From a virus: 64,000 bases of DNA. Below are positions 7,570 through 62,945 of this stretch, piece after piece. The stretch is taken from the IMG/VR virus record IMGVR_UViG_3300044699_000100, positions 779 to 64,778 of that record; one strand, 5' to 3'. A model generated the notes under the pieces. The model saw nothing but the letters and a program-made list of their open reading frames with translations, did no database searches and was not told the origin of the DNA. Both the position numbers and the translations under genes were made by a program. Within the stretch, counting starts at the first letter, position 1, and each line of letters opens with the position of its first letter.

Positions 7570-8044
7570 TTATCCCCCCTCGTGGTCTATTACCTTTGAA
7601 GGTAAGTTTTTATCGAAGCTCATCTTGTCGCCGCCGCCTAGATTTATGGTAACACTGAAGCCCGCGCCGGTAGACAGACTAGGGCTATCGCTTTTATCCA
7701 ACCCCGCAATCCTGCTGATCATCTTGGCGAGTTCGACCTTCGCGGGGAGTGCCTCGTTCTGGTCGTGCAGGCGCGCGTGTCCTTCTGTAAGCCATTGCTC
7801 GATGATGGCTCCAGCCTTGAGCTTGGTGCGCTCTGCCGTATTGGTTGCCGACTGCCAAGCAAGTATTTCTTGCTCCAATAGTGTCATAAACCTTGGGTTT
7901 TGAAGTATAGCGTCCCATTCTTCTTGGTTTATACTATATAGCTTGCGCACCTTCTTCTGCAGAGAGATGGTCTATCGCTATTTCTCTTGCGAGTTGGACT
8001 AGCATTATATCGCGAAGTGGCTCCTTTACTGCTATAGCGTCCAT
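7570..8044 (-). CDS. terS: Terminase small subunit (probable)
   Basis: Directly upstream of terL. ORF 7570..7950 extends across one shift to an ATG at 8044 with a GAGGAGG SD. Confidence 0.6.
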
Positions 8045-8118
8045 TGTTACCTCCTCGTCACTTTAGCGTAACTAAATAGTAACTTGTAACCTCTTGTCCT
8101 ATATAGTATTAGGCGGGA

Positions 8119-10241
8119 ATGGTCCAGACCCTCCCCCAGCGAGGGGTATTACGTGTTGTGCCCGGTGCGCAACTAGAGGCCCAGCTTCAGGCTGAAGCCG
8201 TCGCAAAGGTCCAGCTCGAAAAACCTCCTCAACCGGATATGTCTTCGCTGGCTGCGTATGTGCGTGGCCAGTTTGAGATGTTCCAACGCCACCGCAACGA
8301 CTCACAGTCGGGCTGGACCGAGCGCATGCTGTCTGCGCTCAGGACATTTAATGGCGTTTACGATAACACCAAGCTCGCTGAAATAAGAAAATTCGGCGGC
8401 TCGCAGGTATATGCCAGAATAATTGCAATGAAGTGCCGGGGGGCGAATAGCTTACTAAGAGACGTTTATTTAGCGCCCGATAGACCTTGGGCCATCGAAG
8501 CACCAGCCGATCCGGATATACCTGCAGAGGTAATCCAGACCATAATGCAGTTGGTAGAGACCGAGATGCAGAGCTACATGCAGCTAGCTCAGCAGCAGGC
8601 TTTACAGGGCGGTGAGACTCCCTGAACCTCCCAACCCGGCGATGATCCGCGACCGCGTTAACCAGCTTATGGAGGCGGCGCGCAACGCAGAAAAGAAGAA
8701 CGCGCGCAAGCGCGCGGCACTCGCGCAAGACAAGATCGAAGAAATATTAGAGACAGGCGGCTTCTACAAAGCCATGGCCGAAGTGCTTATGGACTTACCG
8801 TTGTTTCCGTTTGCTTGCTTGAAAGGGTCCCGTCGTTCGTATTGTACCGGACGTTAACTGGGAACCCGATGCACAAGGCAACGTCCAGCCGACAGTCACT
8901 GAAAAACCAAAGATGTTCTGGGAGCGTGTCTCCCCTTTTGATATTTGGTTTACTCCCGGTGTCTCGGATATCGAGAGCGCCGCCGTAATAGAGCGGACTT
9001 CTCTTACACGCGCGGACCTGAACGACCTGTTGGACTTGCCGGGGTATGACACTGAGGCAATCAGAAACGTACTCATAGAACACGGGCAGGGCGGTTTGCC
9101 GGGTGACTGGGACACGGCAGACTCAGAGCGCGCAACCTACGAAAAACGCGAGAACCCGCAGACCAACGCGTCTGGAATGATACACTGCCTTGCGTTTCAC
9201 GGTAACATCCAAGGGCAAATGCTTCTGGATCAGGGGTTTCCCGCAGAGCAGATACCTGACCCGGTTAGAGACTACATGGTGCAGCTATGGCTGATCGGAC
9301 GGCATATCATAAAACTACAACTGACGCCTTCGCCAAGGAAGCGCCATCCGTACTTTATTACGAGTTTCGAAAAAGTCCCCGGCACTCCCGTTGGCAATGG
9401 CTTGCCCGATTTATTGGCAGATATACAAGAAGTCTGCAACGCGGTCCTCAGGTCCTTGGTGAACAACCTCAGTATCGCGTCCGGTCCCCAAGTAGACGTG
9501 AACATAGAACGACTGGCTCCGGGTGAAGACCCCGATGACATGTTTCCGTGGAAGAGATGGAAGACCCTTACCGATCCGATGGCTAATAGTTCTCAGCCAG
9601 CCGTAAGATTTTTCCAGCCCAACTCCAACGCACAAGAGCTTCTTACCGTCTACAAAGAGTTAAATATCATTGCCGACGACATTAGCGCTATCCCAAAGTA
9701 CATGTCCGGAAGTGGAACGTCCGGAGGTGCCGGAAGAACAGCATCCGGCCTAGCCATGCTTATGGGTAACGCGTCCAAGATATTGCAGACTGTTGCAGCG
9801 AATGTTGACAGAGACATTATGTTTGGTGCGCTGCAACAGTTATTCGACATGATCATGCTCACAGACGAGTCGGGGGTGTTCCGTGGCGATGAGAACATTC
9901 GTGTCATGGGTGTCAACGTTGCCATGCAACGTGAGACACAACGTGCTCGTCAGTTGGAGTTCCTTTCTATTACTGCTAACCCGCTGGACGCTCAGATTAT
10001 TGGCACGCAGGGACGCGCAAAGGTGCTCAGGACGGTGAGTAACACCATCGGCATGGACGGGGACAGTATTGTCCCGCCTGAGGACGAGTTGGCAAAGATC
10101 GAACAACAGCAGAAATTGCTTATGCAGCAACAGGCCGCCGAAGCGCAGGGGAGTAAGCCCGGTGAGACTTCTACCGGTGACATGGGTCCGCGTACTAATA
10201 TTTCTCGCGGGGCTGGTCCTGTTGGTGGTGGGGCTGGCTAA
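8119..10241 (+). CDS. Portal protein (frameshifted into 3 fragments)
   Basis: About 700 codons before scaffold and capsid. Portal-like segments FWERVSPFDIWF, PGTPVGNGLPDLLADIQEVCNAVLRSLVNNLSIASGPQ and RTASGLAMLMGNA. Confidence 0.85.
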
Positions 10242-10269
10242 CTATTTGGGTTCTGTCTAGGTTCTATGT

Positions 10270-10422
10270 ATGTCCCAGTGGATAACTATGGGGATAATTT
10301 TAGTTTTCTTTCTGGCTGGCCCTCTGGCTGCCTGTACGAGTCGCTATGAATTTGAGTTTAACGTGCTGCAGCCTAAACCCGTTGTTGTTCCGGCTTATCC
10401 GTCACCAGTTGTGATAAAATAA
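10270..10422 (+). CDS. Small predicted lipoprotein (50 aa)
   Basis: Manual translation MSQWITMGIILVFFLAGPLAAC-TSRYEFEFNVLQPKPVVVPAYPSPVVIK: hydrophobic leader, LAAC lipobox, Pro-rich mature part. Confidence 0.55.
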   Translation: MSQWITMGIILVFFLAGPLAACTSRYEFEFNVLQPKPVVVPAYPSPVVIK

Positions 10423-10437
10423 CCCTTGGAGGTAATG

Positions 10438-10668
10438 ATGCCAGAAGTAAAAAGATACACGAGTAAAGTCAAGTCCAGCGGGCCGCTCCCTTCGAACGCG
10501 CGGGCGCATGGCGGGTCTGGGCATATGGCCAGTAAGTCAGGTGCTGGCCCTCAGAGTCCGGGTGGCACTACCGGGTCTGCGCATAACGCGCCCAGCAGGG
10601 CATATGTTCATGGTGGCTCCGGTCATATGTCGGGTAAGAATACCGCCAAGCCCAAGAAACCCATTTAA
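10438..10668 (+). CDS. Small Gly/Ser/His-rich basic protein
   Basis: GGAGGT SD inside the 10420 palindrome. The motif HGGSGHM occurs twice. Confidence 0.6.
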   Translation: MPEVKRYTSKVKSSGPLPSNARAHGGSGHMASKSGAGPQSPGGTTGSAHNAPSRAYVHGGSGHMSGKNTAKPKKPI

Positions 10669-10895
10669 TGGGTGTTGCCGACGATGCGTTGATACGGGCT
10701 GCTGCCGATCTTGCAAGGGCTTCTCCGGAAAATTGGAGAAAGTTCCTTTCTGCGATGGCTCTCAGGTCTGATCAGATGCGCGAACTTTTAGTTAGTTCCC
10801 CCATCGAGACCCTTCAGGGGCACCAAGGACATGCGCGCGAAATCGCTCATCTCCTGAAGACGCTCAGAACTGTGTGTCGTTGGCGGATAAACTGA
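10668..10895 (+). CDS. Hypothetical protein
   Basis: Start overlaps the upstream stop, within the head operon. Confidence 0.55.
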   Translation: MGVADDALIRAAADLARASPENWRKFLSAMALRSDQMRELLVSSPIETLQGHQGHAREIAHLLKTLRTVCRWRIN

Positions 10896-10907: not shown

Positions 10908-12059
10908 ATGGTAGCCAAGGCGTTTAGTAGTAACATCGTTCCTCCTAGTGACCCCAATGTCGTAGTGCCAGCCGGTGTGAAAGCTGCTGCCGCAAGAGCA
11001 GATGCGGCCTTTAAGGCTGCTTATCCAGATCAAGTCCCTGCAGAAGCTAATCCTCCCGAGCCTTCTGCAGGAGGACCTGCAGGAGGTTCTAGTTCTGATC
11101 CTACGCCACAAGCTCCCAGCCCGCCACAGGCTGGAGAGCCACAGGTCAGAGAACATGAGCCTCCTGCTCCTTCGGCTCCACAAGAAGCACAGGGAGAAAT
11201 AAATTGGGAGCACCGCTTCAACTCTATGAAGGGGCGGCACGAAAAAGATCAAGAATACATCAAGCAGATGTCGGAGCAGATCAGCAATCTGCAAAACGTG
11301 CTTGCTACCATGAATGCTGCACCTCAGGCTCCTGTCAGGAACCGTGAGCTGCAGTTTGAGAGTTTGCTATCTGCCGAGGAGGTAAGCGAGTACGGCGAAG
11401 AGTTCCTTGGAGTTGTCGGTAAGAAAGCCCAAGAAGCGGCAACGCCATTAGTGCAAGAGCTTAGGCAAGAAATAGATGCGCTTAAGCAGCAAGTGGGTCA
11501 GGTTGGTGGGTCTATTGCCCAAAACGCTAGAGAGAAAATGCTTGCACAACTCGATGGTACCGGTATGCCATGGAGAGAGGTAAACAAGGACCCAAGATTT
11601 TTTCAGTGGCTGGCCTTGCCAGACACTTATTCTGGTGCTATACGTCACAATCTGCTGAAAGCTGCGTGGGAGCGGAACGATACCCCTCGTGCGGCAGCTT
11701 TCTTTCAAGGCTTCCTCGCTGAAGAGGCTGCCGTTGATCCCGCTAGGGGGAGCGATCCCCTAGGAAATGGGCCGAACGGTTCCCAAGCCCCCCTTACCTT
11801 TGAAGGTAATGGGCGCAACTCTGGAGCAAGTTCTGGAGTACAGAATGGGAAAGTTCCGCTAGAGTCCTTTGCGGCACCCGGCAGAGCCAAGTCAGCGGCA
11901 GGTAACCTCCCCGCTGAGAAGCCCCTTATCACACGATCCCAGATCACTAATTTCTATGCTCGATGCGCTGCGGGCCTGTACCGTGGCAACGAGCAGGAGA
12001 AAAACCGTCTCGAACGTATGATATTCGAGGCGCAGGCTGATGGAAGGATCACGGCTTAA
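10908..12059 (+). CDS. Capsid scaffolding protein (probable)
   Basis: Directly before the capsid gene. Pro-rich N-terminus and coiled-coil (WEHRFNSMKGR...). Confidence 0.7.
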   Translation: MVAKAFSSNIVPPSDPNVVVPAGVKAAAARADAAFKAAYPDQVPAEANPPEPSAGGPAGGSSSDPTPQAPSPPQAGEPQVREHEPPAPSAPQEAQGEINWEHRFNSMKGRHEKDQEYIKQMSEQISNLQNVLATMNAAPQAPVRNRELQFESLLSAEEVSEYGEEFLGVVGKKAQEAATPLVQELRQEIDALKQQVGQVGGSIAQNAREKMLAQLDGTGMPWREVNKDPRFFQWLALPDTYSGAIRHNLLKAAWERNDTPRAAAFFQGFLAEEAAVDPARGSDPLGNGPNGSQAPLTFEGNGRNSGASSGVQNGKVPLESFAAPGRAKSAAGNLPAEKPLITRSQITNFYARCAAGLYRGNEQEKNRLERMIFEAQADGRITA

Positions 12060-17453: not shown

Positions 17454-18414
17454 ATGGGAGGGTAGTTTTGACACTTTCTTTAAAACATTCAAAAGCTATC
17501 GACAAAGCAGACGGGCAGGACCCCGCCCTGCTGCAGCCGTCTGACTGGAATGCGCAGCATGTACTTAAAGTCGCGGCTAAAAAACTCGTCGGTAATACTA
17601 CCGACTCTGAAGCCTCTGCAGAGGAGGTTGCTCTTAGCGACGACTTTGAAATGGCAGGCGGTGTAGTAAGTCTTGCTACCAAGCTTAGTAACTTTGAAGT
17701 TGTCGTTGCTGACATTGACCCGGATAACCCCGAAAACGCGCGTGTCCTTATCACTACTCCGACAATTGCTTGGGACAAGTCAACTCCTGAGCAGATTGAA
17801 AGCGGATGTTGTCAATGACAGCATTACGCTTGCCAAGATGGAGCATGGGGAAGGCGGCGAGATACTTTTTTACAATAAAACTAGCTCTCCTATCGGTTCA
17901 CCGGGGCGGTTGCCAGTGGGTGATCCCGGCACTGTTTTAACTGAGACTGGTACTAATCCTGCGTGGAAATATTCTGGCGCTCCACATTGTGTGTTAATAG
18001 ATCAAAAAGACAACGGCGTGGAGGGTGGTACTTTTACTCAGGATGGTTGGCGTGATCGCGTAATTAATGTGCAGTTGTTTTGATCCTTATCATTGGGTAA
18101 CCTTCGCAGGTAATATCTTTACATTACCGATTGGGGAGTGGATTATTGAGTGGAGTTGCCCGGCACGATCATGTGAGATGCACCAAACGCGTTTGTTAAA
18201 TAATACAGATGCCGCCAAGCCCTTTGTGATGGGGTCTTCTGAATATGCGCCTGACAGTAATAATTCACAAACTAGGTCTGTTGGGATAACACAAGTTACT
18301 CACACAGTGGCTACCGGTTATAAACTCCAACATTATTGTACTAAAACCGGTACTTTTGGCAAAGCCGTAGGAGCTACCGGGGCGCTACTGCCAAAGAGAT
18401 TTATACCATTGTAA
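17454..18414 (+). CDS. Tail-associated protein (frameshifted into 3 fragments)
   Basis: LSLKHSKAIDKADGQDPALLQPSDWNAQH N-terminus and a C-terminal beta-rich domain, both seen in phage tail proteins. Confidence 0.5.
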
Positions 18415-19533: not shown

Positions 19534-21745
19534 ATGGTTGCCTTCAAGATAGATATCTTTGGGGGTATGTTTCCGGCAATGAGCGATGAGCTTTTGCCGG
19601 AACGTGCTGCTGCGCACTCAGAAAATACATGGTTATATTCTGGGAGTCTGGTAGGTTTACCGGCTCCCAAATCACTTAGAACTTTGTTGATCCCGGACTC
19701 CTCCAAGGTTTATCGTATTCCTGCGACATATGACCGGTCTGCTTATTTATATAATTCGCTTTGGATAGAGTTTACCAACGGGGATACGGATGTAATCCGT
19801 GCGCCTGTGTTTAACGATACGCACGACAGATATTATTATGCTTCAACGTCGCTTCCTCCAAGGTATAATACTCGTGCACGTATAGAGGCTGGCGCAAATA
19901 ATTCACTTGACAGTCGTTCTTGGCTGTTGGGAGTTCCTCCACCGACCGTGGCTCCTAGCCTTGAAGTTGCTGGAGGCTCAGTTAAGCTGAATAACGTACG
20001 CGTAGCGACTACTGTAGCTGGAGTACTAAACAAAGACTTTATTGCAGGTAAGAAAGTTGATGGCGTAGAGCTAAAAGTAGACGACAGGATTTTTATTAAG
20101 AACCAAGTTGCTGCCAGCGATAACGGTATTCGTATTGTTGTAGCTGGAACGGGGACGCCTCCTGTTGGGACACCTCCCCGTGCAGAAGACATGGATACTG
20201 CGGATGAATTTGTTAATAGATATTTTAAAGTTACAGAAGGCACAGTCAACGGTGGTTCTACGTGGAAAATTACCAACGAAACTAATCCGGTTTTAGGTAC
20301 GACCGCCATTACGTCCAAGGAGATTTCAGAATTACCTTTGCAGGTAACGAGGTCGTATGTTTATACATGGGTGACAGAATACAAAGAGGAAAGCGCCCCC
20401 AGTCCTCCTGTTGTAGTGACAGGCATTCAGGATGGCTCGTGGAACTTAGATGGTTTTGAAATTCCGCCTGCTTCGAACCGGGGTTTGCCGCTGATCATAA
20501 TGCTGAAAGGTGGATAACTAAAACTAGAATATATCGTACTATTACTTCGGCCTCGGGAGTGGCTTCATTTTTCTTGGTAGCCGAGCAAGACTGCACGATA
20601 AATTTTTATAAAGACACTATTGAGGACGACGAAGTATCCTCCAATGCTTTGCTGGAAAGTTTTGCTTGGACGCCACCGCCTGAGGACCTCAAGGGCTTGG
20701 TGGTGATGTGGAACGGCATTATAGCTGGCTGGCGTGAAAACGAACTATGGATGAGCGAGCCATATAGACCGCATGCGTGGCCAGCTTCATATACATTAAC
20801 GATGGAATATCCTATTGTTGGCCTAGGCGTATCGGGACAAACTTTAGTTGTTTGCACTGTTGGCTATCCAGCCGTAGTTAGTGGCGCTCTTCCAGAGCAT
20901 ATGGGCACTGCCAAGGTCGCTGTTTTTGAGCCGTGCGTCTCGCGTGGGAGTATCTTAAGTTCAGATGCTGGTGTGTTGTTCGTAAGCCATAATGGGTTAA
21001 TAGCAGTTACTCAAAAAGGTGCGACTAATATAACCAAGGATTTGGTTACACGGATAGATGGCAGCAGCATACCAAGGAGGCAAAGCTAAGGGCTGCTTGG
21101 CTGGGACAAGCTTATTATGCGTTTGGTGGAGTCGTTCCGGGTGTGTTTGAACCTACCGCATGGGCTGGCTCACACAATGATTTTAAGCCTGATCTTATTA
21201 CCCCCATGGAAGACTGGGTATCCAAGGTGGACTATACGGGGGCGCATAATGGTGTTTTGATTGATCCTGCAGACACGCGCGTTGCTTTTAATCTACTCAC
21301 AAGCGACTCCCCTGTTTTTGGCGTGCAGAACGATCCATGGTCGGGAGAAGTGTTTTTAATTCGTGATGGAGAGGTTCAGTGGATTGACATTAGCGATCTA
21401 GAAAACCCTGTTGAGCCGTTTATCTGGAAGTCTAAAGTATATCAAACCCTCGATAAGAAAAATCTCGCGGCGATGCGGATTTTCTTTAAGGAGACGTTTG
21501 GGCTTCCTGCGCTGAACGATATCAGGAACACTAACCCTCAAGAAGAACTTAGTGACGATCTGTGGGGGCTTTGCCGGTTTTATGCCGATGGGGAATAAGA
21601 TACACCCAAGAGCTTAGAGAGTCAGGCGAGTTATGGAGATTGCCTCTGGGTTTTTGTATGATTTCTTTCAATACGAAGTGGAGACGAGACTTAAGATACT
21701 TAGCATTCAACTTGCTTCAGCGTTAAGGAGCTTGGAAGCGTATGA
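19534..21745 (+). CDS. Tail nozzle or stabilisation protein (tail tubular B / P22 gp10-like), frameshifted
   Basis: FKIDIFGGMFPAMSDELLP N-terminus, GWRENELWMSEPYRPHAWP, CVSRGSI and FIWKSKVY. Fragments 19534..20517, 20559..21089, 21143..21598 and onward. Confidence 0.7.
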
Positions 21746-27885: not shown

Positions 27886-30800
27886 ATGAGTCCCCCACTT
27901 ATAACAAAGGCCCGTCAAGGGACTGGTGCTGTATTATGGAGCGATTATCTCAAGCAGGCGGGGGCCGGTCTTGTTGGCGATGTGGCTGCCTCTGTGCCTG
28001 CTGCTACGCGTTATGCCGCAGAAGCTTTGCCGCAGAGCGAGTTTAGCGATCTTGTTGCAGGGTCAAGTCATTATCTGGAAGATAAATTAAACGAATGGGG
28101 CGAGGACATAGCGAGCGGTCTTAGCCCAACCGCTCAGAGCCGGATCGCGGCTGAGTTTGCTTCTCCTGAATATTGGGCGCATCCGTTCAGTAGCACAGCT
28201 TTAACAGCTACTCGTTCTGCGCCGTCCATGGCTGCTGCAGCGGCAGCGACGTTGCTCACTGGCGGCGGCACTGCTGGCGTAGCTGCGCTTATGGGGGCCG
28301 GTGGCTTCCTGAGTGCTGGCGAGACAGTCGATGAGATGTACGAAGCAACGGACAGAATGTCCAGCGCTGAACTGGCAGAAAATAACCCACTTTATGCTGG
28401 ACTGCTTGAAGATGGCCTTAGTGAGGCACAGGCCCGTAGAGAATTTAACAGTACTATGCTTGGCCTTAAGCCGGTCCTCTTGGGTGCGTTTGGCGGGCTG
28501 ACCACGCTTATAGGTCCGGAAGCGCAAGTACTTCGTAATTTCACCAAAGCAGGCATCAGGGAGGCTGCTACAGGCGGTATAGCTAAGCGTGTTGGTAAGT
28601 CAGCAGGCGAAGCATTCGTTGGCGAGACAGCGGAGACTGGGGCTGAAGATATTACGGCCCAGCAGGGGGCCGTTGATGTAGGACTACAGCCAGAGATAAA
28701 TTTAGGTCAAACCGCTCGAAGCTCTCTGTATGGCGGTGTCATAGGTGCTGTGCTGGGTGCTCCCGGAGGCATTCGCTCGCACACCAACGCCAACCCTCGT
28801 CCGCAGCCTGTTAACCCGCCAGCAGCCGTTGTCTCGAACGCTGTAAAGCCCAATCAAGCTGCCGTGCCAGCGAGGGCGTCTAATACCAATGCTTCTCCAC
28901 CCGTTGTACCTACGCCAACCAAGCGGACTGGGCCTACGTCCAGAGCCGCCACTATTCCCGGAGCGACAGGCGATGCATACAAGAAGCCCAAGCAAGCCCC
29001 CGGCGCACCACGCCGCCCAAGTTCAGGTGCAGTGGGAACAGTTGGAACTCCCGTTACCGCTGCCACCGCAACGACCGCCGAGGCCACTCCTAGTACCTTG
29101 GCCGGGATAGCTCCCCCTGCCCCACAGAGCCCCGTAGGCGCGGTTTCGGGGGTAGGGGCTACTCCTACCCCCTCTCCGGCCCAAGTCGCGCCTACGGGGC
29201 TCGTAGGGGGTCAAGGAGTGACTTCTGCTCCCGATCCCACTGGTATCGTCGTTGGGACGACAGAGGCCGCCGCATTACCCAAGCCACGTACACCGTCTCA
29301 GGTTCAGCAAGCCACTGGCGTGCCTTATGCACAGGCGCGTGCCGTAGCTGAACGGGAGGGTGATACTTCAGGTGTTCCTGCCCCTGCTGCCCCTGCCCCT
29401 GCTGCCCCCTGCCCCTGCTGCCCCTGCACCTGCTGCTGTGCTGCCAGCCCCGACTCCAACACCAACCCCCGCCCAAACACCCGGTGAAGGTTTTGGGGCT
29501 GGCACCATAGCAGCACGTGTAGCTCCTCCCCAAGAGACTGTGCCTATAGGAGAGCCACGTCCTTCGGCTCTAGCTCCGGGTACTGTAGAGCAACCGGTCG
29601 GTATACCTGCTGCTCCCGCTCCTGCTGCTCCCGCTCCTGCTGCTCCCGCTCCTGCTGCTCCCGCTCCTGCTGCTCCCGCTCCTGCTGCTCCCGCTCCTGC
29701 TGCTCCCGCTCCTGTACCGGCACCGGCACCGAAAGCTCGCGCCGCTCCTGTCCCCAAGGCACCTAAAGAAAATCCAAATGTTGCGCGTGCAGTAAAACAT
29801 GGCGTGCCACCGCTTGAGGGTAAGCACACAGGTCGTAATACAAAACTTTACGACGATGCTGATGCTGCACAAGCATTACTCGATCAACGCCCGGCTAGTC
29901 CTGCAATCCCAGCTACAGAAGAAGGGATCGACGCACTCGCAACCGAGATAGGCGGTATTGTAAAGACTGCCGCAGGGCAGGGCGTGGAGCTTCGTGGCAA
30001 GGTTGGTTTTCCGACTACGCCCCATTCGCTTGTGTGGCTACGGGAAGCGCAGGAGTTTGTCAGCAGGCTTAGTGGCAAAAAGAAAATCGAGCTTGCCGAC
30101 AAGCAAGCGGCTGCTATTCGGTTTCTTGATCGTGAACTTAGAATAAGAAAGGGTGAAGGAAATAGCGTTAAAGCCGAGCGCAATGCCGAAGGCGAAGCTG
30201 CTATGGCGGCGCGCGGCAAGGGCAAAGGCAAGGTAACAGAACAAACTCAAGCAGGAGATATTGTTGCTGGCCCCGCAAAGCTGAATGTTCCTACTGAGAA
30301 ACGCGAAGTTGTTCAGGCGGGGGGCTTAATAAAGAGGAAAGACGTAGCGAAAGCTTTTACACGTGAAGTTTCTCCTGAGGCGCGTGCAGAGATAGAAGCT
30401 CGCACTGCAGCCGAAAGCATAGAAGCTGTTAAGAAAAAAGCGGCTGAAGCTGCTAAGCCCAAGCCCTTACCTCCAACGGTAGCTGAGAAGGTAGAAGCTA
30501 CGAAAGCTAAGACCGCAGCGAAGAAACAAGCTCAGAAGGAGGCATTACCTTCGAAGGTAAGGGAGAAAAAACCTCTTACGGTAAAAGTTACTCCTGAAGC
30601 CGTAGCAAAAGCTAAAGCCGTAGCTGAAGCCAAGAAGGCACCGCCTAAGCCTTCCGGCAAAGCCGCGCTTGGGAGCGAACTGGCAAAGGTTGAGCCTAAC
30701 CCCAGCAACGCGCAGATTGAAGCCGATAATGCTTCCAAGGGGCATATCCCCCTTGAAGGCATGCAGGTTGCTGTCTCTACTGCAGCGAAGACCGAACGGC

Positions 30801-33800
30801 ATCTCGTGTTACCGAGTGGCTCTCGTGTCAGCCGTCTTTATAATTACTCTTATGGACATATCCTTGGAACAAAAGCTCCCGACGGCAAGCCCATTGATAT
30901 TTTCCTAGGTCCGGAGGCTTATCCCGGTAATCCTAAACTGGAAGGGCTTCCAGTTGTTGTGATCGACCAAGTGGACCCGGACACTAAGGCTCCCGACGAA
31001 CCCAAGGTGATGTATGGGTTCAGCAAAGTAACCGATGCGGTAGAAGCTTATAAGGATAGTTATCCGCGCGGTGACGAGCGTGTTGGCGATGTTGTGCCGA
31101 TGACGCCAAATGAATTTAAGCAATGGAGAAGGTCCAAGGAGGAGATAAAGAACGCCGACGAGACTGCAGGTGAGCCTGTTAGCGAGCTAGAGGCTCTGAT
31201 TGAAGAGCAGGCTACGGATGCTGCGTCGCAAGATGAACTGGATACTATTGACGACGGTTCGGTACCGCCCGTTCCGTTTTCAGACGAAGATATGGAAGAT
31301 GCCAGTCAAGCTAAAGAAAATGCGGCTAAGCGAGAACTCATTGCTGCTGCGAGTGCCGTACGGAGCGGTAGATTTAGTGATTTTGTTGGTGAAGCAACTG
31401 ATGCGTATCAGAATTTTTCTTGGTATAAACCTATTACCAGATCAATTTTCAGGAGATTTTTGCAGCAGATTAACTCGCTAGCCAGCGATGTTCCTGTCTA
31501 TGTTGTTCCAGATACTGTGTATGAGAATGACTTGGGGAAAGGTTTTGGTACTGCAGCTTTCTATAGTCCCCACGGGAACTTTATAGCTATAAAAGAAAGC
31601 CATGCTAATTTTAGCGCTTTTAATACTGGAGCATCGCAACTCCTACTGCACGAAGGTGTGCATGCAGCATTTACTAAGGCCATATATGCAAACCAAAAAA
31701 TGCTGGACCTTGTTAACGATGTATACCATGAAGCGGTAGCAAACTCTACTAGATGGACTTTCCCTAGTAGACGTGCCCAGTATGGCTTGACGAACGTCGA
31801 TGAGTTTATAGCGGAGGCTATAAGCAATAGGGACTTTCAGAAATTCCTCGCTAACATCAAAGCAACTCCATATCTCATAGAAAAACTTGGACTGACCAAG
31901 AGCCGCCCACGTTCCATGTGGGATGTGTTTACGCGAATGGTTGGCAAGGCACTGCGCCTATCGCCAGTACACGATACGTTGCTTGGCGCTGCTATGAAAG
32001 TGTCATCGCAGCTAGAGCTTGCTTCGATAGGTATAGGACAAGGCGTTCCCAGCGATTTACGGTCGGCAAGCATAAGGTCTGGAAAACGTACTGGAGTGGT
32101 TGCTGACCTAGGTGAACTGGAGAGCCGGTTACCAGAAGCCCTCACCGACAGATTACCTTCAAAGGTAAATGCTCTTCTTGGCACCACAGCGAACATACAA
32201 CCTCAACAAGGCACTCCGTGGGCGTTGGGCATTCGCACAATGGACCAAGTTGTGCAGTTGGCAAAAGGTTTTAACACTAAATTTTACGAGCATCTTAGAA
32301 AAGCTGCAGATATCGTTGAGATGATCCGCACTACTGCGGATAGATACCTTAACGAGATGAAGCCTATTATCTACGAAAGCCATGCACTGGAGAACAAGTA
32401 CAAGGGTACCGGGCTATGGGAGAGATTTGTTGATCTCGTAATGACGGAGACCAGAGTACAAGTTTACGCTGACCGTCTTCTTGCAAGTCAAAAACATCTT
32501 GGGAAAAATACGCTTAGGGGCGCACAACCCAAAGCCGAGTGGGCCGCGCTTAACGCCGAGTGGCAGGAACTTAGTAATCTAGCCCCTGACCTGATGGCGT
32601 TTCGTGCCAAGTCCATAGAGTTCTTTAAGGAGGCCCAGAATAAAGGAACGTATGGGCATCATAAAGAACTCGCTTAAGATTGGCGGGTTTGACGATCCCG
32701 ATCTGGCGCAAAGATTACTCGATGGCGACGAGACGGACGCAGATATTGCAACGCTTGGAAGATTATACGATCATATCAAGGACGCATCCGAGCTTGCCAA
32801 GCTGAAGGGACCCTATATCCCGCAAATGCGGAGGGGTAAGTATGTCGTTCGTGCGTTGGCTAAAATTACGGCTCCTGCTAACGCACTGAGAGCCATACCC
32901 GACGAGAACGGCGAAGTAAGGACTTGGGAGTTTGCCGGGAAGGGCGCTCGCAAGCGCGCGATGGACTATGCTGCATCCCTGAAGGGCAGCGGCATGATAG
33001 CAACCCCAACCTCAGTATGGGTGGACACCAACACTGGCGAGAGATATTTTAATCTTAACCAGCCTAACGAAACACGTGTCAGACCGCAAGACGCTGACGC
33101 AGAACAACGCTTCAGGGTTACAGTTCAGAACCGCTACGTGGACTTCTTTGAGACCAAGTACGAAGCGCGCAAAGCTGCTTTTGAGCTGGAGAATGACCCT
33201 GACATAGAAACAGGGAGCGTAAAGTCTGTCGTCGAGCAAAGGTTTAATCCCGGCGACCGTCAGGCCGACTTGATGTCGCATCAGTTACAAGTGCTTGCTT
33301 CTAGCCTGCAGAGAAGGCCGGGATATCAGAACCTAAGTCCCAACGAACAGAACCAAGTTATACAGGCGTTCAACACTGCCAGCTTGAGATTATTAAGTTC
33401 AACAAGAATACAAACAAAACGCATGCAACGCACCAACGTGCTTGGCGCTTCCACAGATTTCACACGTAATACATTGGAATACGCTCAAAGCGTATCGGGT
33501 TACCTCGCAAGGTTAGATCACCAAGACAATCTGAACACTGCCATGCGGGAAGCCCGCAAGGAAGCCGATAGCTCCCGCGATGCAGGTAAAGGGCTGGGCC
33601 AAAGCCAGATCATGAATGACATGGAGAAGCGTATCGCTCGCTCCACTGCATTTGAGCAGCCCGGAAGGATAACCGAATGGGTCAATAGGATTTTAGCAGC
33701 AAGCTTTGCGGATAAGTTGATCTCTCCCGCTTATAACCTGCTTAACTCCTTGCAGGTTATCATGGTGACCTATCCAGCGCTCGCATCCAGATACGGTGCC

Positions 33801-42234: not shown

Positions 42235-42393
42235 TTATCCTCCGATCCATGTTTCCCTATATCTTAGTAAGAGTACTCGTAGCTCGTCGGATGCGCGGAT
42301 AGTTTCTCGCGATAGTAGCCCTCCATGGATGCCGTTGTCGGTGTTAATAGCCTGAATAAGCTTCTCGGCCGCTTTGACAATCGCTTCTGTCAT
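42235..42393 (-). CDS. Hypothetical protein (52 aa)
   Basis: Manual translation [17 protein letters not shown]..., with a GGAGG SD. Confidence 0.45.
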
Positions 42394-42407
42394 TGTTATC
42401 CTCCCTG

Positions 42408-42862
42408 TTACCTACGAGGTAAGCTATAGCTGCTTGCAAAACTTGCGGATCGTCTCGGCTCATTCCGAGCATTAGGTTGCAGTGATGACACAAAATGCCG
42501 CGTACCTTCCCGGTTACGTGGCAGTGGTCTACGTACCATTTTATTGTTTCCGACGTTCTGCAGATAGCACATTTGCCACCTTGGGCTGCCAGCATGGCAT
42601 CGCGTTCTTCTAGGGTTATCCCATATGAACATTTAAAATGGCTCTTAAGTGTATGGGCTTTTTTCTTTTTTCTAAATTCTAGATCGGTTTATACTTATTG
42701 CGCGCCCAATTCCGCATGCGTTCGTTATATTTTTTCACGGTGATTGTTCGCGTAATTCCGTGCGTATTCGCGCCATTTTTCTCTCTTCTTATTTTTCTTC
42801 TCTTCCTTGTCTTGCTTAATCCGCTCAAGAACGCGAGCTAGTTTTTCTTCGTGAGCCAGCAC
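42408..42862 (-). CDS. Endonuclease VII-family (HNH) free-standing endonuclease, frameshifted
   Basis: QGGKCAIC...[25 protein letters not shown]...AAIAYL. GTG start after a GGAGGT SD. Confidence 0.75.
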
Positions 42863-42879: not shown

Positions 42880-44447
42880 TTATATAAGAAGCGACTGCGT
42901 TGCTTCCTCAAAAAGGTTTAGCAACTCGTTCTGTATATTCTGCTTGTTCTGCAGTAGCTGATAAATTCTTCGCTCTACAGGCGTTCCCTGAAACATGATG
43001 TACAACTGTCTGCGGCCTTGGCCTACTCGCCTTATTCTCATATTAGCCTGTTCAAAAGTCTCCAAACTGGTAATAGGCGAGAACCAGACAATTGTAGAAG
43101 CATTAGTCAGGGTCAAACCGTGAGCGAGACACTGGGGGTGTGCGGCTAAGACCTTGTATTTACTGGTATTTTGGAACAGGTTGAACGCTTCTCCTCTATC
43201 GTTCGCAGAAATATCTCCAGAAACAGTAGTATGATCTATTCCCTCATTCTTGAGCGCGTGAGAGATACCAGCAAGAGCATGCTTAAATGGAGCAAACACT
43301 AACAATTTGTGATCGCTTGAAAGTACCACGTCTATCAACGCTTCGATGCGTTTGTCATTGTCTAGCGTTACCGTTGTTTTATCCGCTGCATACACATACC
43401 CCGTAGAAATCTGTAATAATTTAGAAAGCGCAGCACCTGCGTTTGCTGCAGTGATTTCTTTGTTCTGCAGTGCAGTGTAACAATGTCGCGCCATTTCCTT
43501 ATAAATTTTAGCCTGCGTTGGACCTAGCTCGATGTCCATCGTGCGGTAGATCGCCTCCGGTAGCTCCACCACGTCGTCCAACGTGAACCTCACGGCAGGC
43601 TGCAGAACCTTAAACGCTCGTTCTGCAGCATCCGGCTTGGGTATCCACTTAAAGGTGTTGACGCGTAGCATCAACTCGTCGCGAAACCCCTTGAAGTATT
43701 TTGGGACCGTATTGGGGGTTATAATACTTGCAATTGCCCACGCATCGGTGGGGAGGGTAGGGGATGGGTGCACCAGTCATTCCTACTACCCATTCAAACC
43801 TATTAGCTAGTGATCTCATAGTCTTAGTACGTTGTGACTGTCCATTTCGATACACAGCCGCTTCATCAAGGGCCAGCATGTTAATGTCTTTACGCGAGCT
43901 AAGCGCGTCTAGTACTGTTTTTACGCCATCATGGTTAATAATGTATATATCAGCGTCTTCCTTAAGAGCTTGCAAACGCTTCTCTCTTGTGCCGTGTAGT
44001 ACTACGGCTTTCCTATGTGGCAGCGTAGCGAAAACTTCCCGATGCCAAGTAAAACGAAGGGTTGATAACGGGGCAACGACTAGTAACTTGTCTACGATCT
44101 TATTGAGTTTTAAGTAGTCAAAACTCCAGAGCAACGATCTCGTTTTCCAACGCCCATACCTGACAAATTATACGCTCGGTTATTCATTGTAATCATAGCC
44201 GCCATTTTCTTTTGGCTTCGAATGGCGGCTGATTAACTGGGTGTGGCCAGCTATAATTAGTTAGTATTGGAGACGGCACGTCGTAGTTAAGTTTCCGCAG
44301 CATAAAGCTCTCGGCTGGTTTGTGGGGCACCAGCGTATAGCCATTCATCTTCTGAGCAGTGGGGAAAAGGTTCTCCACCGCAGGCGTAGTAGGAACACCC
44401 AACATGCGGTGCTTGGCACTTACCTTTACAGGTAATAGGTGGGTCAT
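42880..44447 (-). CDS. SNF2/SF2 DNA helicase (frameshifted into 3 fragments)
   Basis: LVVAPLSTL, LALDEAA, VGMTGAP, LAHGLTLT and EQANMRIRRVGQ helicase motifs. Confidence 0.9.
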
Positions 44448-44460: not shown

Positions 44461-44778
44461 TTATTCGAGCACTTCAGTTGCTGAGTGTAACTCCATCCAT
44501 TCTTTCAAGTGTGCTACTATTTCAGGGTTGTCGATAACCAGATACTCTCCACCGGCTTCTTGTATTTTCTTCATGCATATTTTCTGCAGCGCAGTGGGTT
44601 TCTCTCCGGGGGCTTTGGCTTCGAAGCCAAAGAACTTCCCCTTGTAACACACTAGAAAATCTAGTGTTCTGGCCCCCAGTCCCATTTGGACCGGCATGAA
44701 ATAGTAGCACCCCGAAAGGGCATCGAGGACTTTTTTAATGGCCCTCTTGATCTTACCTTCCGGGGTAACGTGGGTCAC
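44461..44778 (-). CDS. VRR-NUC domain nuclease
   Basis: TPEGKIK...DFLVCYKGKFFGFEAKAPGEKPTALQ. Confidence 0.85.
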   Translation of the reverse strand: MTHVTPEGKIKRAIKKVLDALSGCYYFMPVQMGLGARTLDFLVCYKGKFFGFEAKAPGEKPTALQKICMKKIQEAGGEYLVIDNPEIVAHLKEWMELHSATEVLE

Positions 44779-54495: not shown

Positions 54496-55911
54496 CTAGT
54501 CCCTCGCCTGCTTGGGTATCATCACCACGTCTCCCCACGGATACTCCTTCTTGTCGATGCTCGCCCAGATCATGGGGCACTCGGGCTTATAGCTAGGAAA
54601 GTCCCCATGCCCGTCCGTGAGATACACAATACAATCCGGCCTTAAGTCGTTATCAGCCACATAGTCGAACACCGGCTTAAAGCTTGTGCCTCCCCCACCC
54701 GGAGCGCCCTTGGCACGTATGACATAGAGATCGCTCGGGCTATCGCAGATGTCCGTGCGATGCAGCGCAGCGTCACACCAGCAGAGATGTAGTTCTCTCG
54801 GCTTCACGTCCTCCAGTATCCCACCTACTTCTGCGAGGAACATGTCCACTTCTTTTGAGGAGATCGATCCTGACGTGTCTACGCCCACGACAACCGTGCC
54901 AGCACCGTAGCCCGATCTTGCGGGAGTGTAGATGTCCCTGACGATCAGCCTGCGATCCGGCTTCTTCCAGTCATACGATCCGGTGCCGAGCTTCCGGGCA
55001 AAGAGCGCCCTGATTTTGTCCTTCCAGTCAACGGCAGGGACAAGGACTTCTTGGAACACACGCTCCAACCCCGCAGGCATCTTACCTTGTAACCTTTGAA
55101 GGTTAGCTGCTGCAGCGATATGCATGTCCCATTCGGCTTGGTTACGCTCCTTTGCTGCCGTCTGTGGCTCCTTACCCTTGGAAGCACCCGGTTTCATATG
55201 CTCGTCGAAGCTCTTGCCCCTTGGACCCCTTGGCTGGGTAGGCGGCTCGTTAGAAGGCACATTGCCGGGGCTGGGAGGCCCCTTGGGAGGGTTAGTTCCC
55301 GGAGGAGGTGGTTGGCTACCCGGCCCTGAAGGCCCCTGTCCTTGCCCGGCTCCTTGCCCGTCCTTGGGGGGACGCTTAGGCGGTGGCGGCGGTGGAAACA
55401 TCTTATACAGCTTACGATACGTGTCCACGCCAGTATCAGCATCGGTGGCGATGCTTATGTCATACAGCCAGTCCTTGTTGAACTTACCCACTTGCGCTTT
55501 GACTAGAATTGCGTTGATCACCAAGTCCAGCGCAATGTTCATAAGCTCAGGGTTCCACGGCAGTGACTTGCCGTCGGGATAAGTTATCTTCCCGGCTCGC
55601 TCATACTTATGTCCTGCAACTATGTGGTTGAGGATATTATGTAATATCTCGTGAGCGAGAATGAATACGCGTTCCAGCAGTTCATACTTGAAGAACACGT
55701 CGGGATTGATAAGTATGCTGCACCCGTCCGTAGCTGCAGCGTTGGGAAACTCTTTCGTAAACACTGCACCGTGCTTGCCGTTACTCAGCAGTGTAATAAA
55801 AATATGCGTGAACGCTGGGCAGTGCCATGAGAGTGCAACGCGCGTGTCGCCCCAAAGACGCTCCTGCTCCTTGGTCAGCTCGACTTGCTTGATGTCCGTT
55901 GAGATGTGCAT
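54496..55911 (-). CDS. VWA-like / DUF2201 putative metallopeptidase
   Basis: AATDG...FILAHEILHNILNH (HEXXH), NIALDLVINA, Pro-rich linker, MIDAS-like VGVDTSGSI and GGGGTSFKPVF. Confidence 0.9.
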   Translation of the reverse strand: MHISTDIKQVELTKEQERLWGDTRVALSWHCPAFTHIFITLLSNGKHGAVFTKEFPNAAATDGCSILINPDVFFKYELLERVFILAHEILHNILNHIVAGHKYERAGKITYPDGKSLPWNPELMNIALDLVINAILVKAQVGKFNKDWLYDISIATDADTGVDTYRKLYKMFPPPPPPKRPPKDGQGAGQGQGPSGPGSQPPPPGTNPPKGPPSPGNVPSNEPPTQPRGPRGKSFDEHMKPGASKGKEPQTAAKERNQAEWDMHIAAAANLQRLQGKMPAGLERVFQEVLVPAVDWKDKIRALFARKLGTGSYDWKKPDRRLIVRDIYTPARSGYGAGTVVVGVDTSGSISSKEVDMFLAEVGGILEDVKPRELHLCWCDAALHRTDICDSPSDLYVIRAKGAPGGGGTSFKPVFDYVADNDLRPDCIVYLTDGHGDFPSYKPECPMIWASIDKKEYPWGDVVMIPKQARD

Positions 55912-60773: not shown

Positions 60774-61386
60774 TGTGTTACCTCGAAGGTAATGTGGTGG
60801 ATATGACGTTTCTGACAGACATTACCTCGCAGGTAACGTTCTGTGGTCGAGCTGAGCAAAAAAGTTTGATGCATAGTGCGGAGCGCTTTACGCAGGAAGC
60901 GTGAATTTTAACGCAAATGAGGGCTGCAGCAGAGTTGTCCCCTACTGCAGCCCCCACTCTCGCTCACTTTACGCTTACGCTACGCTACGCTACGCTAGTG
61001 TGAAGGACGGCAGCAAGCTGCCGTCAATCACTTCGTTGAGTGACCTTTCAACTGCCCCTGCCAAGGCTCAGGCTCTGATCTGATGGCAGGTTTGCGACGG
61101 CTAGTAATCACTCGTGAGTTCGTGGCGCGGTATTAATTACCGCGCAAACACTGGCACTGGATAAACACAGTAACTAAACCATGCTGCACTTGGGCGCGTC
61201 CATACAGTTGGTTCATAAAGAGAACTAGACCAAGTTTTTGTCCAGTAATTATAGTTGTAAATGAAGCCATCTTTCAACATATCGTCCTCCGCAGTTGGGA
61301 TTACCTTTGAAGGTTACATGTCTACGGCATGGCTACCGGTTATCGGTAGGGCATTGGTTGGGTAGAATGTAACCTTCAAAGGTAAT

Positions 61387-61419
61387 AGGGGTGCAGTCCT
61401 TGAACTGCACCCCTGTTTT
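61387..61419. terminator. GC-rich hairpin with a T-run
   Basis: AGGGGTGCAGT-cctt-gAACTGCACCCCT-GTTTTT, just past the stop of the 61435 gene. Confidence 0.6.
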
Positions 61420-61434
61420 TAGTGGGTAGGTGGA

Positions 61435-62198
61435 TTAGATAAGACCGGCTTCCCGCAGCTTCGCCTCCTGAGCGCGATAGGCGTCAAGCTCGGCAGCCAG
61501 CGTCATCTTGGCAGACCATTGCTGCAGTTGCTCCACTGCGTTGGTGATCTCCACGTCCTGACAAGACAGGCCGTCCTTACGCTCGCCACTTATCAGGTCC
61601 GTGAGAAGCTCGGTGATGTGATCAACCACGTTCTGGACAGTCTTCTCCGGCTTGTCCTTCGGCTTCATTGCCTCGATGATCTCGGCATCCGTGGGAGAAG
61701 TAACGTCCGGCGTGTTCGGATCAGCCTTCCAATCAACCGCCATGCGCGCGGCATTGACGTATGCAGCATAGACGCTCTGCATCTTGGTCTCGGCAGCGAT
61801 CTGCTCATGATAGAGCGCAACTACCCTATCCATGAACTCTCCGGGTCGAAGTCCTTGATCTGACCAAGGTCATATCCACGCTTGAGCTTCGACACTTGCG
61901 CGGCACGCCCCTCCTTGCCCTGCGAGTGCACGCCCTTCTTGACGCGCTGGTCCCAATACGCGCCGTAAATGGCGTGCATCGCCTTCTTGTCGGCTTCCAG
62001 GTCGATTGCGCCGTCCTTCGATGCGCGCACGACTTCGAGCAACAGCTTCGGCAGAGCATCGGCACCGATGGCAGTGTCGCGACCAAGCGCACGCGCCGTC
62101 TTCACAATCTTGTCGAAGCGCGTATCGTTGACGTTGTTACCTGCTTCATTACCTTCAGGGGTAACGTCGTTGGTGTCGGCAGTGTTAAGGTCAGTCAT
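61435..62198 (-). CDS. Helical hypothetical protein (one shift)
   Basis: ORFs 61821..62204 and 61435..61833 join at DFDP/MDRVV. Confidence 0.6.
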
Positions 62199-62326
62199 TC
62201 TCATTCTCCCGTTTTGGGCTAAGGCCCGGTTTGCGCGTGAGTGCGCTGGTCACTCTGCATCATATGCAGAACTAATCACAGCCACAAGCGGCTGTGAATT
62301 TGTTTGGTTACCTTTGGAGGTAACGT

Positions 62327-62621
62327 TTAGTCGGCAACCTCCCATTTCATGTCATCGCGGTAGTCTATGCTCTCCCAACCATCGTATTCGTGAATACGGT
62401 AGTGAGCGCCCGATCTTAACGTGATCACGCTCAGGTCGCCCTTGTCGGGCATTGCCTCGACAATCCGCACGAGCAACGGGTCAGTGCGGTCGATATCGTA
62501 GTGGGTATACGGTATCGTTGTCGTTCTCGATTGGGAGCCCACGCGCGGCAGCGAGCACGTTGTAACAGTCGCGCGGCAGACTGAAGCCGCCGTAGTTGGT
62601 GTTGAGAACGATCTTTGTCAT
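62327..62621 (-). CDS. Small conserved phage protein (frameshifted)
   Basis: MTKIVLNTNYGGFSL...DIDRTDPLLVRIVE...YRIHEYDGWESI, a widespread phage family pattern. Confidence 0.7.
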
Positions 62622-62648
62622 GCATTACCTTCTGAGGTTAGCGTTAAG

Positions 62649-62945
62649 TTATTTGCCCCAGCGCAGCTTACTGCGCTTGTCTTGAAATTCACGTTCTACC
62701 TCTTCCTGATACGCGAGCGCGTCGTAGTCTGGCATGGGCTCAGGTATCGTAGAGTTACCTTTCAAGGTAACTAATTCCTGCTCGGCAGCGAGCAACTGTG
62801 CAAACCTAGCGTGGCGTAGTTCGATGGTAACGCTGAGTTTGCCACAATTAGAACACTTTTTACGCCGCAGCGTCGTGGTCTCGGCGTGTCGTGTTCCAGT
62901 GACCTTAAGCTGTTGTCCGCACTCGTGACAGTGGTTAGCCTTCAT
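62649..62945 (-). CDS. Zn-ribbon protein (NrdR N-terminal-like)
   Basis: CHECG...LKVTGTR...RRKKCSNCG...TIE. Confidence 0.65.
   Translation of the reverse strand: MKANHCHECGQQLKVTGTRHAETTTLRRKKCSNCGKLSVTIELRHARFAQLLAAEQELVTLKGNSTIPEPMPDYDALAYQEEVEREFQDKRSKLRWGK

Follow-up and report, generated by a model that had tools for sequence, protein, structure and literature searches.

A dispersed 16-bp palindrome under DNA-level selection within and between the genes of a clade of ~60-kb phages: a candidate docking site for a phage protein

Introduction

Why would a phage keep the same short palindrome at some twenty places inside its protein-coding genes, in all three reading frames? The question is raised by a stretch of 64,000 nucleotides (nt), positions 779 to 64,778 of the IMG/VR record IMGVR_UViG_3300044699_000100, hereafter the window, which covers nearly all of this 65,490-bp phage record (G000; G+C content 51%). 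The element in question is the 16-bp palindrome TTACCTTnnAAGGTAA with the core TTACC-N6-GGTAA. According to the initial annotation, about 20 of its copies are embedded in genes, selection on them acts on the nucleotide sequence and not on the peptide, and their function needs neither a promoter nor a ribosome-binding site. Dispersed palindrome arrays of phages have been known since those of the Cluster O mycobacteriophages and are still without an assigned role.

Here, we show that the palindrome is present in large excess, that it is selected at the DNA level, that it is conserved throughout a clade of phages, and that the palindrome as a whole is the functional unit. The in-gene copies are words selected as DNA and do not simply follow from the proteins whose genes they cross. 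As for the function, we propose, with about even confidence, that the copies serve as docking sites where a putative sequence-specific protein, probably of phage origin, binds the DNA duplex as a dimer.

Results

Excess of the palindrome and its distribution among related phages

The window contains 26 matches to TACCTTNNAAGGTA with at most one mismatch, compared to 0.08 expected from dinucleotide-preserving shuffles, and 60 matches to the 16-mer at up to three mismatches. When all inverted repeats of 5 bp are counted without bias, TTACC-N6-GGTAA ranks first by a wide margin, with 28 exact copies versus 0.06 expected. If the spacer is allowed to be either five or six bases (N5 or N6) and the core to have at most one mismatch, 61 copies are found in the unique 63,979 bp of the genome. 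The consensus of the genome-wide set is TTACCTTCGAAGGTAA.

The word is shared by a clade of ~60-kb phages with G+C contents of 50–65%. It is the top palindrome in three genomes, with 0.02–0.06 exact copies expected in each: G000 itself (28 exact copies), G001 (13), and the cultured Rhizobium phage RHph_TM27A (26). G001 (64,160 bp, G+C content 65%), which has 28 copies at up to two mismatches, was found in an exact-pattern scan of IMG/VR that otherwise yielded mostly chance singletons. RHph_TM27A (G+C content 56%), whose DUF927 primase is 41% identical to that of G000, combines its exact copies of (G)TTACC-N6-GGTAA(C) with eight exact N5 copies, each class compared to 0.04 expected. The word is also present in the metagenomic relatives L207–L210 (65–75% primase identity) and in most of the IMG/VR loci L127–L138 (35–45%), and was not found in the clade at ~25% primase identity. 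These loci were retrieved with an alignment as the query; the IMG/VR locus search with a single protein returned nothing. A 4-kb stretch searched with Megablast matched no cultured phage, and a literature search on RHph_TM27A and on the word itself gave nothing relevant.

Members of the clade also occur in assemblies of Bradyrhizobium, Xanthobacteraceae, and Cellvibrionaceae (L211–L214, protein P0070), either as separate ~60-kb contigs or within contigs of 170 kb to 7.8 Mb. Some of them may be prophages or episomes, although G000 shows no integrase.

Protein-preserving shuffles

The in-gene copies were compared to a null model in which synonymous codons were shuffled within each gene, leaving all proteins unchanged (30 long coding sequences, 33.1 kb, interiors only, 500 runs). 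Three exact copies are observed, compared to a mean of 0.02 and a maximum of 1 in the shuffles; at up to one mismatch, six (mean 0.19, maximum 3); at up to two, ten (mean 0.9, maximum 5); and at up to three, 15 (mean 3.2, maximum 8). In the relatives, the excess is even larger than in the window: exact in-gene copies number 15 versus 0.48 in RHph_TM27A, nine versus 0.18 in L209, and three versus 0.08 in L207.

These numbers bear on the simplest explanation, that the copies have no function at the DNA level and result from conserved peptides, codon usage, or chance. For single copies it has some grounds. Similar peptides do occur in relatives, e.g., TFxGK in the polymerase and TPEGK in the VRR-NUC protein. 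The five in-gene copies with exactly three mismatches, versus 2.3 expected, are partly due to chance, and the weakest copies, those at 55090 and 30467, do not exceed what chance would give. As an account of the entire set, we reject this explanation and give it hardly any credence: protein-preserving shuffles yield one tenth or less of the observed counts, and, as described below, the same region of a gene may carry the word in other frames that encode other peptides, and rare codons are fixed at the sites.

Conservation of in-gene copies in orthologous genes

Among the site-by-relative pairs, 23 of 38 retain the core with at most one mismatch. In the primase, the motif windows are conserved in nine out of 12 pairs, compared to 16.8% of control windows. 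The best-conserved in-gene copy (38764..38779, minus strand, frame 0, peptide LPFEV) lies in the primase gene and is kept by all four close relatives. Its codons are TTA CCT TTC A/GAG G/ATA in all five close genomes, whose amino acid identity is 65–75%, whereas the leucine codon immediately before the copy drifts (tta, cta, ctg, ctg, ctc). TTA is the rarest leucine codon at the conserved leucine columns of the primase (20 out of 240). More generally, at the conserved amino acid columns of this protein, the codons are identical in all five genomes at six out of 12 motif columns versus 73 out of 474 other columns. Counterparts in relatives were also found for the copies at 49420, 48670, 44420, and 36951, for three out of four copies in the giant virion protein gene, for the copy in the scaffold-position gene (in RHph_TM27A), and for the copy at the end of the terS-position gene (in G001).

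The word may be preserved even where the peptide is not. In one and the same 30-column region of the primase, it is read as LPFxV in G000 and its close relatives (N6, frame 0), as VTMLGN in RHph_TM27A (frame 1), as LTPKV in L129, and as VTQQV in L135, the last two being N5 copies. Similarly, distant relatives have a copy within ~20 residues in another frame of the primase gene, encoding another peptide. Turnover is observed as well, as some primase copies are lost via synonymous changes, e.g., at columns 409–413 in L207 and L208. The copies tend to lie in slightly less conserved protein segments (0.515 vs. 0.573, p = 0.008).

Thus, the claim that selection acts on nucleotides and not on the peptide is supported by both tests suggested in the initial annotation: shuffling yields about one tenth of the in-gene copies, and the orthologues do not drift freely at the sites, with the codons at 38764 fixed next to a drifting leucine codon.

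The copies arise by point changes, not by insertion. No indels are seen at the in-gene sites relative to orthologues lacking the copy, and hence insertion of mobile elements, including mobile palindromic elements of the REP/RAYT or MITE-like kind, was rejected; no RAYT-like match turned up in general scans either. The IS110-like Tas protein of G000 belongs to a TIGR locus and is absent from the RHph_TM27A annotation.

The same comparison speaks to a possible role of the word as a target for recombination or nucleases, that is, for exchange of cassettes between related phages at the word or for cutting or nicking by a phage HNH protein, endonuclease VII, or VRR-NUC. The word is identical in very divergent relatives and brackets many small early genes; two copies in the giant virion protein gene share the frame and the peptide LPSKV, which would allow for in-frame exchange; and endonuclease VII, VRR-NUC, a PD-(D/E)XK exonuclease, and HNH-like proteins are all encoded. 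On the other hand, the copies occupy orthologous positions in continuously homologous genes, no module swap across copies is seen in the primase, polymerase, or giant virion protein, the origin by point change leaves no indels relative to orthologues, and 16 bp is short for homologous exchange. We therefore consider a recombination or nuclease target distinctly unlikely.

Placement relative to genes and the form of the site

The census of 184 copies from five annotated genomes or regions places 47 of them at ribosome-binding sites, where they end 1–14 nt before a start codon, nine just inside starts, 11 near gene ends, 82 deep in coding sequence, and 35 in other intergenic positions. In the window, 17 copies are deep in called genes and several more in genes missed by the calls. 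Since 82 copies are deep in genes and no conservation is seen in the flanks outside the 16–18 bp of the word, the claim that neither a promoter nor a ribosome-binding site is needed is supported as well. A composite promoter containing the copies was rejected, given the lack of a conserved flank. The in-gene copies are not internal translation starts, as no start codon is found at a usable distance and frame.

In junction copies, the 3′ arm forms the Shine–Dalgarno sequence and the TAA of either arm forms the upstream stop codon. The inner bases differ by context: junction copies favor T7/G10, yielding GGAGGT, while in-gene copies favor C7/A10 on the sense strand (17 vs. 3), which looks like avoidance of strong Shine–Dalgarno sequences within genes. 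The outer half-sites are thus the selected constant, and the inner bases are tuned to translation.

This link to translation speaks for an element acting at the RNA level, namely a small mRNA hairpin or a word read by an RNA-binding protein or nuclease. The anti-Shine–Dalgarno arm (ACCUY) would pair with the Shine–Dalgarno arm (RAGGU), so that junction copies could provide for translational coupling or repression, and in-gene copies would be sites of processing, decay, or pausing. Such an element would directly explain the 47 copies at start codons with their Shine–Dalgarno arm and TAA stop, as well as the dependence of the inner bases on the sense strand, and a loop of three or four nt would match the N5 or N6 spacing within one genome.

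The form of the site is at odds with it in several respects. The outer 5 bp are near-invariant and the center is variable, and a conserved stem with a free loop is the opposite of what is seen in hairpin recognition by the proteins binding MS2, PP7, and boxB hairpins. At the variable positions adjoining the conserved core (6–11, 7–10, and 0–17), Watson–Crick pairing is no more frequent than independence predicts, as computed from base counts; hence, the compensatory changes typical of a structured RNA element are not observed. The RNA hairpins predicted for most copies have low stability (−4.5 to −7 kcal/mol), and those of junction copies (−4.5 to −4.8 kcal/mol, z from −0.4 to −0.7) are no better than shuffles. 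On the sense strand of the in-gene copies, C·A mismatches outnumber G·U pairs. The in-gene copies have no usable start codon downstream, copies in RHph_TM27A lie exactly between convergent and exactly between divergent genes, and no Rfam family was found for the word. Taking this into account, we regard an RNA-level element as unlikely, though the N5 copies and the overlap with ribosome-binding sites keep it in play.

Isolated half-sites are at the chance level, with 32 TTACCT outside the palindromes, so that the inverted pair is the unit; a single half-site as the functional unit was rejected because of this lack of enrichment. Given the invariant outer 5 bp, the lack of covariation, the weak hairpins, the lack of a conserved flank, and the chance-level half-sites, a reader of half-sites on the DNA duplex fits better than a hairpin.

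The variable center has its own pattern. In G001 the central bases are almost always TCGA, and in the perfect and near-perfect copies of G000 they are TTGA, TCAA, or TCGA; the centers TTGA and TCAA are what TCGA would become if the C of its central CpG were replaced by T in either strand. As to the spacer, L135 (IMGVR_UViG_3300015608_000124) has TTACC-N5-GGTAA 16 times in 20.7 kb and no N6 copy, which is a one-base shift of the spacing throughout this lineage.

The putative reader of the word

If the copies are docking sites, a dimer of the predicted protein, probably phage-encoded, would dock on each duplex copy, reading two half-sites of 5–6 bp about one helical turn apart and leaving the center free. 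Between genes, the word doubles as a TAA stop codon and a Shine–Dalgarno sequence (GGAGGT). In genes, it is placed where the protein is more tolerant of change, with frame 0 (LPxKV) and frame 1 (xTxxGK) used most often, and avoids GGAGG on the mRNA strand. Global control of transcription could follow from the binding, as could marking or compaction of phage DNA. Roadblock, coating, or recombination roles, favored over promoter repression in the initial annotation, are candidates only.

Several observations weigh against docking of this kind. About a quarter of the copies (47 out of 184) supply the Shine–Dalgarno sequence of a start codon, as an RNA-level role directly explains. N5 and N6 copies coexist in RHph_TM27A (eight and 26 exact ones, respectively), and L135 has only N5; a rigid dimer would not tolerate both spacings, while a hairpin loop would. 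The spacing of copies in G000 (mean ~1 kb) has a coefficient of variation of 0.95, compared to 0.97 for random placement. One relative, L136 (IMGVR_UViG_3300018476_000041), has no copy of the word and no other enriched palindrome in 13.5 kb. At the same time, it has the polymerase, exonuclease, VRR-NUC, helicase, gp33-like and gp34-like proteins, and a primase that is 40–46% identical, so that it looks like a natural loss of the palindrome system, and the system looks dispensable, since the core replication genes are retained without any copies. Finally, the protein itself is elusive: a six-frame search of G000 yielded no ParB_N domain (PF02195, E-value up to 0.1, where control genomes respond), no Xre-type HTH_3, and no tyrosine integrase, and the Pfam and PHROGs scans of ~85 open reading frames (ORFs), a few of them from relatives, yielded no solid match resembling a binder or repressor and only two leads. 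One of these, a small protein with an HTH_7-like helix-turn-helix domain, could be detected in G000, L207, and L208 and nowhere else, apart from a marginal match in RHph_TM27A (EVB29_057) at the same position upstream of the polymerase.

An even lattice, with copies filling long genes, was rejected, since in G000 the distances between copies vary as much as if they had been placed at random.

The HTH_7-like protein corresponds to the C-terminal part of the ORF 49610–50140 (minus strand) and probably starts at ATG 49873. Its homologues are at 7628–7885 in L207, where it passes the Pfam threshold and has a weak match to Mor-type activators, and at 7111–7401 in L208. As a binder, it is a lead, not a finding. 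In the window, this protein is fused in frame to an N-terminal segment resembling a signal peptide. The other lead is a weak NrdR-like zinc ribbon in the ORF 62649–63008. In the search for a binder, sequence searches of PDB gave no match. The 379-aa protein next to the primase was linked by the Atlas search only to “Pam3_Gp34”; both this protein and the core replication proteins are unlikely binders, as L136 carries them and has no copy of the word.

Without a solid phage binder in the searches of G000, a host factor has to be considered, i.e., a conserved bacterial protein, such as a CRP/FNR-like dimer with a 5-N6-5 site, recruited or titrated by the phage. The 5-bp half-sites with a 6-bp spacer match CRP-type sites, and the word is constant across phages with G+C contents from 50 to 65%. 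Still, in bacterial assemblies with a clade member the word is confined to the phage contig and is at the chance level in host chromosomes: five out of six exact copies in the 8.7 Mb of Bradyrhizobium genosp. SA-3 are on a 60.5-kb phage contig, which leaves one copy outside it, and an 8.8-Mb Cellvibrionaceae bin has 23 copies versus 15 in the control. The wholesale switch to N5 in L135 and the loss in L136 are also more easily explained by a phage-borne reader. On balance, a host-factor site seems improbable to us, about on a par with a recombination target.

A hairpin in single-stranded DNA that serves replication by telling the DUF927 primase-helicase where to prime or load, with one such site required per ~1 kb of either strand, would agree with the mean spacing of ~1 kb, with the presence of the word tracking the primase clade, and with tolerance of both N5 and N6. 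It agrees poorly with the lack of enrichment of isolated half-sites, the irregular spacing in G000, and the L136 primase, which is 40–46% identical and goes without any copy. We hold this replication signal to be very unlikely.

Individual copies in the window

The genes named here come from a rough map of the window, with key genes verified by homology. All 20 coordinates listed as in-gene copies in the initial annotation indeed carry a copy, but only 13 of these are firm and deep in coding sequence (11794, 20332, 30545, 32153, 33500, 34869, 36951, 37785, 38764, 47993, 48670, 49420, 62149); five are at gene boundaries (7590, 44420, 44753, 52827, 62755), one is ambiguous, and one is weak. The use of three reading frames was described correctly: frame 0 yields LPxK/EV, frame 1 yields xTxxGK/N, and frame 2 yields YLxRL. 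All N6 copies in frame 2 carry GGTTA, where a perfect copy would end in an in-frame TAA.

In the structural region, the gene named terS at 7590 turns out to be a minus-strand ORF (7570–7950) in the terS position, directly upstream of terL. The copy (7590..7605, minus strand) covers its last codons (LPSKV), 20 nt before the stop of this ORF and 22 nt before the terL start; in G001, the corresponding codons of the orthologue carry GTACCTTCGAAGGTAA. The copy at 11794..11809 (plus strand, frame 1, LTFEGN) is deep in the 383-aa scaffold-position gene (10908–12059); RHph_TM27A has TTACCTCTGAAGGTAA at the homologous place, and the copy is absent in G001. The ambiguous copy, TAACCTTCGCAGGTAA (18098..18113, plus strand), is either 31 nt inside the ORF 18067–18414 or intergenic, depending on the start codon chosen; profile scans gave no homology support for this gene model. 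The copy at 20332..20347 (plus strand, frame 0, LPLQV) is deep in the gene of a 327-aa virion or tail protein (19534–20517), in a stretch covered by no relative in the site comparison.

The gene of the giant virion protein (phrog_37402) has four copies on the plus strand. Two of them are perfect and encode LPSKV in frame 0: the one at 30545..30560, in a Lys/Glu-rich stretch, corresponds to TTACCTCCAAAGGTAA at the homologous position in L207, despite the local protein identity of only 46%, and the one at 32153..32168 corresponds to TTACCTCCACAGGTAA in the same relative. The third copy, TTACCTCGCAAGGTTA (33500..33515, frame 2, YLARL), has GGTTA, which avoids the in-frame TAA, and is degraded in L207 (two mismatches). 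The fourth one (34869..34884, frame 1), in the C-terminal piece of the protein, is conserved in L207 and absent in L208.

The primase-helicase gene (DUF927, 36368–39457) carries, in addition to the copy at 38764, three more copies on the minus strand. The copy at 36951..36966 (ITSLGN) has the exact core TTACC-N6-GGTAA and is kept in L207, L209, and L210 and lost in L208. The one at 37785..37800 (VTSKGY, with GGTTA) has only degraded counterparts at the same place in L207 and L208; copies 15–30 alignment columns away in L209, L210, and RHph_TM27A indicate turnover. A further copy, which is N5-spaced, has one core mismatch, and was missing from the earlier list (38228..38242, LPAGY), is kept in L209 and L210, while L207 and L208 keep the peptide with drifted codons.

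The remaining copies are all on the minus strand. The copy at 44420..44435 covers codons 5–9 of the SNF2 helicase gene, and L207, L208, and L209 likewise have a copy there (+3 to +18). The copy at 44753..44768 covers codons 4–8 (VTPEGK) of the VRR-NUC gene; it is kept in L207, and in L208 a copy is found 20 nt upstream, at the ribosome-binding site. An exact N5-spaced copy, also additional to the list (47207..47221), is inside the ORF 47016–47534 and is conserved in L209. The DNA polymerase A gene has three copies. The one at 47993..48008 (FTFGGK) is 280 nt before the stop, and an exact core is found at exactly −280 from the stop in each of L207, L208, and L209. The one at 48670..48685 (LTSAGY, with GGTTA) is matched at the homologous position by an exact core in both RHph_TM27A and L209. 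The one at 49420..49435 is near the 5′ end (+171) and beside an assembly frame break; L208 and L209 have copies at +170, and the relatives read it in frame 2 as YLQRL. The copy at 52827..52842 is a gene-end copy and not a deep one: only 8 nt separate it from the stop codon of the tas ORF, whose final codons it covers. The weak copy, TAACCTTCAAAGGTTA (55090..55105), is in the gene of a 471-aa VWA/metallopeptidase-like protein; it may be due to chance, as it has two core mismatches and no counterpart in RHph_TM27A, G001, or L214. The copy at 62149..62164 (VTPEGN) is 34 nt inside the early ORF 61821–62204, and the perfect copy at 62755..62770 is in the ORF of the 119-aa zinc-ribbon protein (62649–63008); a shorter gene model would put it at +25 relative to the start.

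The recombination endonuclease VII gene is at 42344–42595 (minus strand, Pfam E-value 3e-21), amid small early genes, and comes on top of VRR-NUC, the PD-(D/E)XK exonuclease, and the HNH-like proteins. Upstream of the polymerase, where G000 has the tas/TIGR region, L207 (374–1207) and L208 (1–668) encode a 275–277-aa protein with an IS110-type transposase domain; the TIGR–Tas locus may be common to this subclade.

Some features of the record are due to its assembly. The record ends, 1–1,500 and 63,975–65,490, overlap by ~1.4 kb with three indels between them, which implies a unique genome of ~63,979 bp and an assembly with indel errors. The genes of terL (6109–7568), portal (8119–10241), giant virion protein (27886–35281), SNF2 helicase (42880–44447), and polymerase A (47713–49606) are each split into 3–4 ORFs. 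Since these genes are intact in the relatives and the record ends differ by indels, the frame breaks in the window, including that in tas, are assembly artefacts and not biology. The idea that the copies mark assembly frame breaks was rejected; by inspection, only the copy at 49420 coincides with one.

Discussion

The present case offers clean evidence of selection at the DNA level: orthologous codons stay fixed between deeply diverged genomes, copies reappear in other frames, and the word itself does not change over G+C contents of 50–65%. It is also an example of layered coding, where a single 16-base word codes for a peptide, provides a stop codon, acts as a ribosome-binding site, and carries a further signal. 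One practical consequence is that synonymous recoding or codon optimization of such phage genes would destroy selected signals. The presence of cultured Rhizobium phages in the clade makes experiments feasible.

A broader interpretation, possible but tentative and in our view rather doubtful, is that of an undescribed, clade-wide genome-marking system, in which a putative phage reader would bind the ~60 words and thereby distinguish the DNA of the phage from that of the host, or organize it. The word could then be used for, e.g., selective transcription, protection, or packaging, and it would have co-evolved with the junction code (stop codon plus Shine–Dalgarno sequence), in keeping with a genome that has almost no non-coding DNA. 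If true, genome marking could be tested directly in cultured RHph_TM27A.

Several known systems may be compared with docking of a dimer on dispersed words. In the ParB–parS and KorB–OB systems, palindromes of 16 or 13 bp, several of them in coding sequence, are bound by a spreading or sliding dimer of the ParB family. The sites described here are palindromes of the same size, dispersed over the replicon, tolerated in genes, and, as is the case for ParB and KorB, acting away from promoters. Unlike these systems, G000 has no ParB_N domain in six frames and a far higher copy number (~60 in 64 kb). As no ParB was found, the set is not a ParB system.

The start-associated sequences of Cluster K mycobacteriophages are reportedly asymmetric and tied to gene starts. 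In both cases, a conserved repeated word, including the ribosome-binding site, is located a few bases upstream of many starts; here, however, only about one copy in four is so placed, the word is palindromic, and 82 of the 184 copies are deep in genes.

Stoperators are asymmetric 13-bp sites oriented with transcription, at which the immunity repressor of a temperate phage binds and, with no promoter needed, blocks transcription. Our set resembles them in that one short site recurs at least 20 times, scattered over intergenic as well as coding sequence. In contrast to stoperators, the site is palindromic, with only the inner positions 7 and 10 dependent on the sense strand, and no repressor, integrase, or Xre-type helix-turn-helix protein was found in six frames and in ~85 scanned ORFs. 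Given the symmetric sites and the lack of a repressor, this is not a stoperator set of the kind known for the L5 gp71 repressor in Cluster A mycobacteriophages (summarized, apart from general knowledge, in PMC4351075).

The closest published case is the repeat of Cluster O mycobacteriophages (Corndog and its relatives), a 17-bp palindrome, 5′-TGTTCGGNNNCCGAACA, with 34 copies, about one third of them in coding regions, and no assigned function (PMC4351075). As in Cluster O, a single short inverted repeat of 16–17 bp occurs over 30 times throughout the genome in the phages considered here, is common to related phages and conserved among them, and is found at higher density in the non-structural arm; many of its copies are intergenic, some are just inside starts, and a sizeable share, about one third, is in coding regions. 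The phages are not obviously temperate in either case. The word and the host phylum are different, and two spacings, N5 and N6, are used here. While the Cluster O repeats were described as not closely linked to translation starts (PMC4351075), about a quarter of the copies in our set are fused to a ribosome-binding site and a stop codon. Finally, the five Cluster O genomes are near-identical, whereas here the conservation of orthologous codons is seen over 40–75% protein identity.

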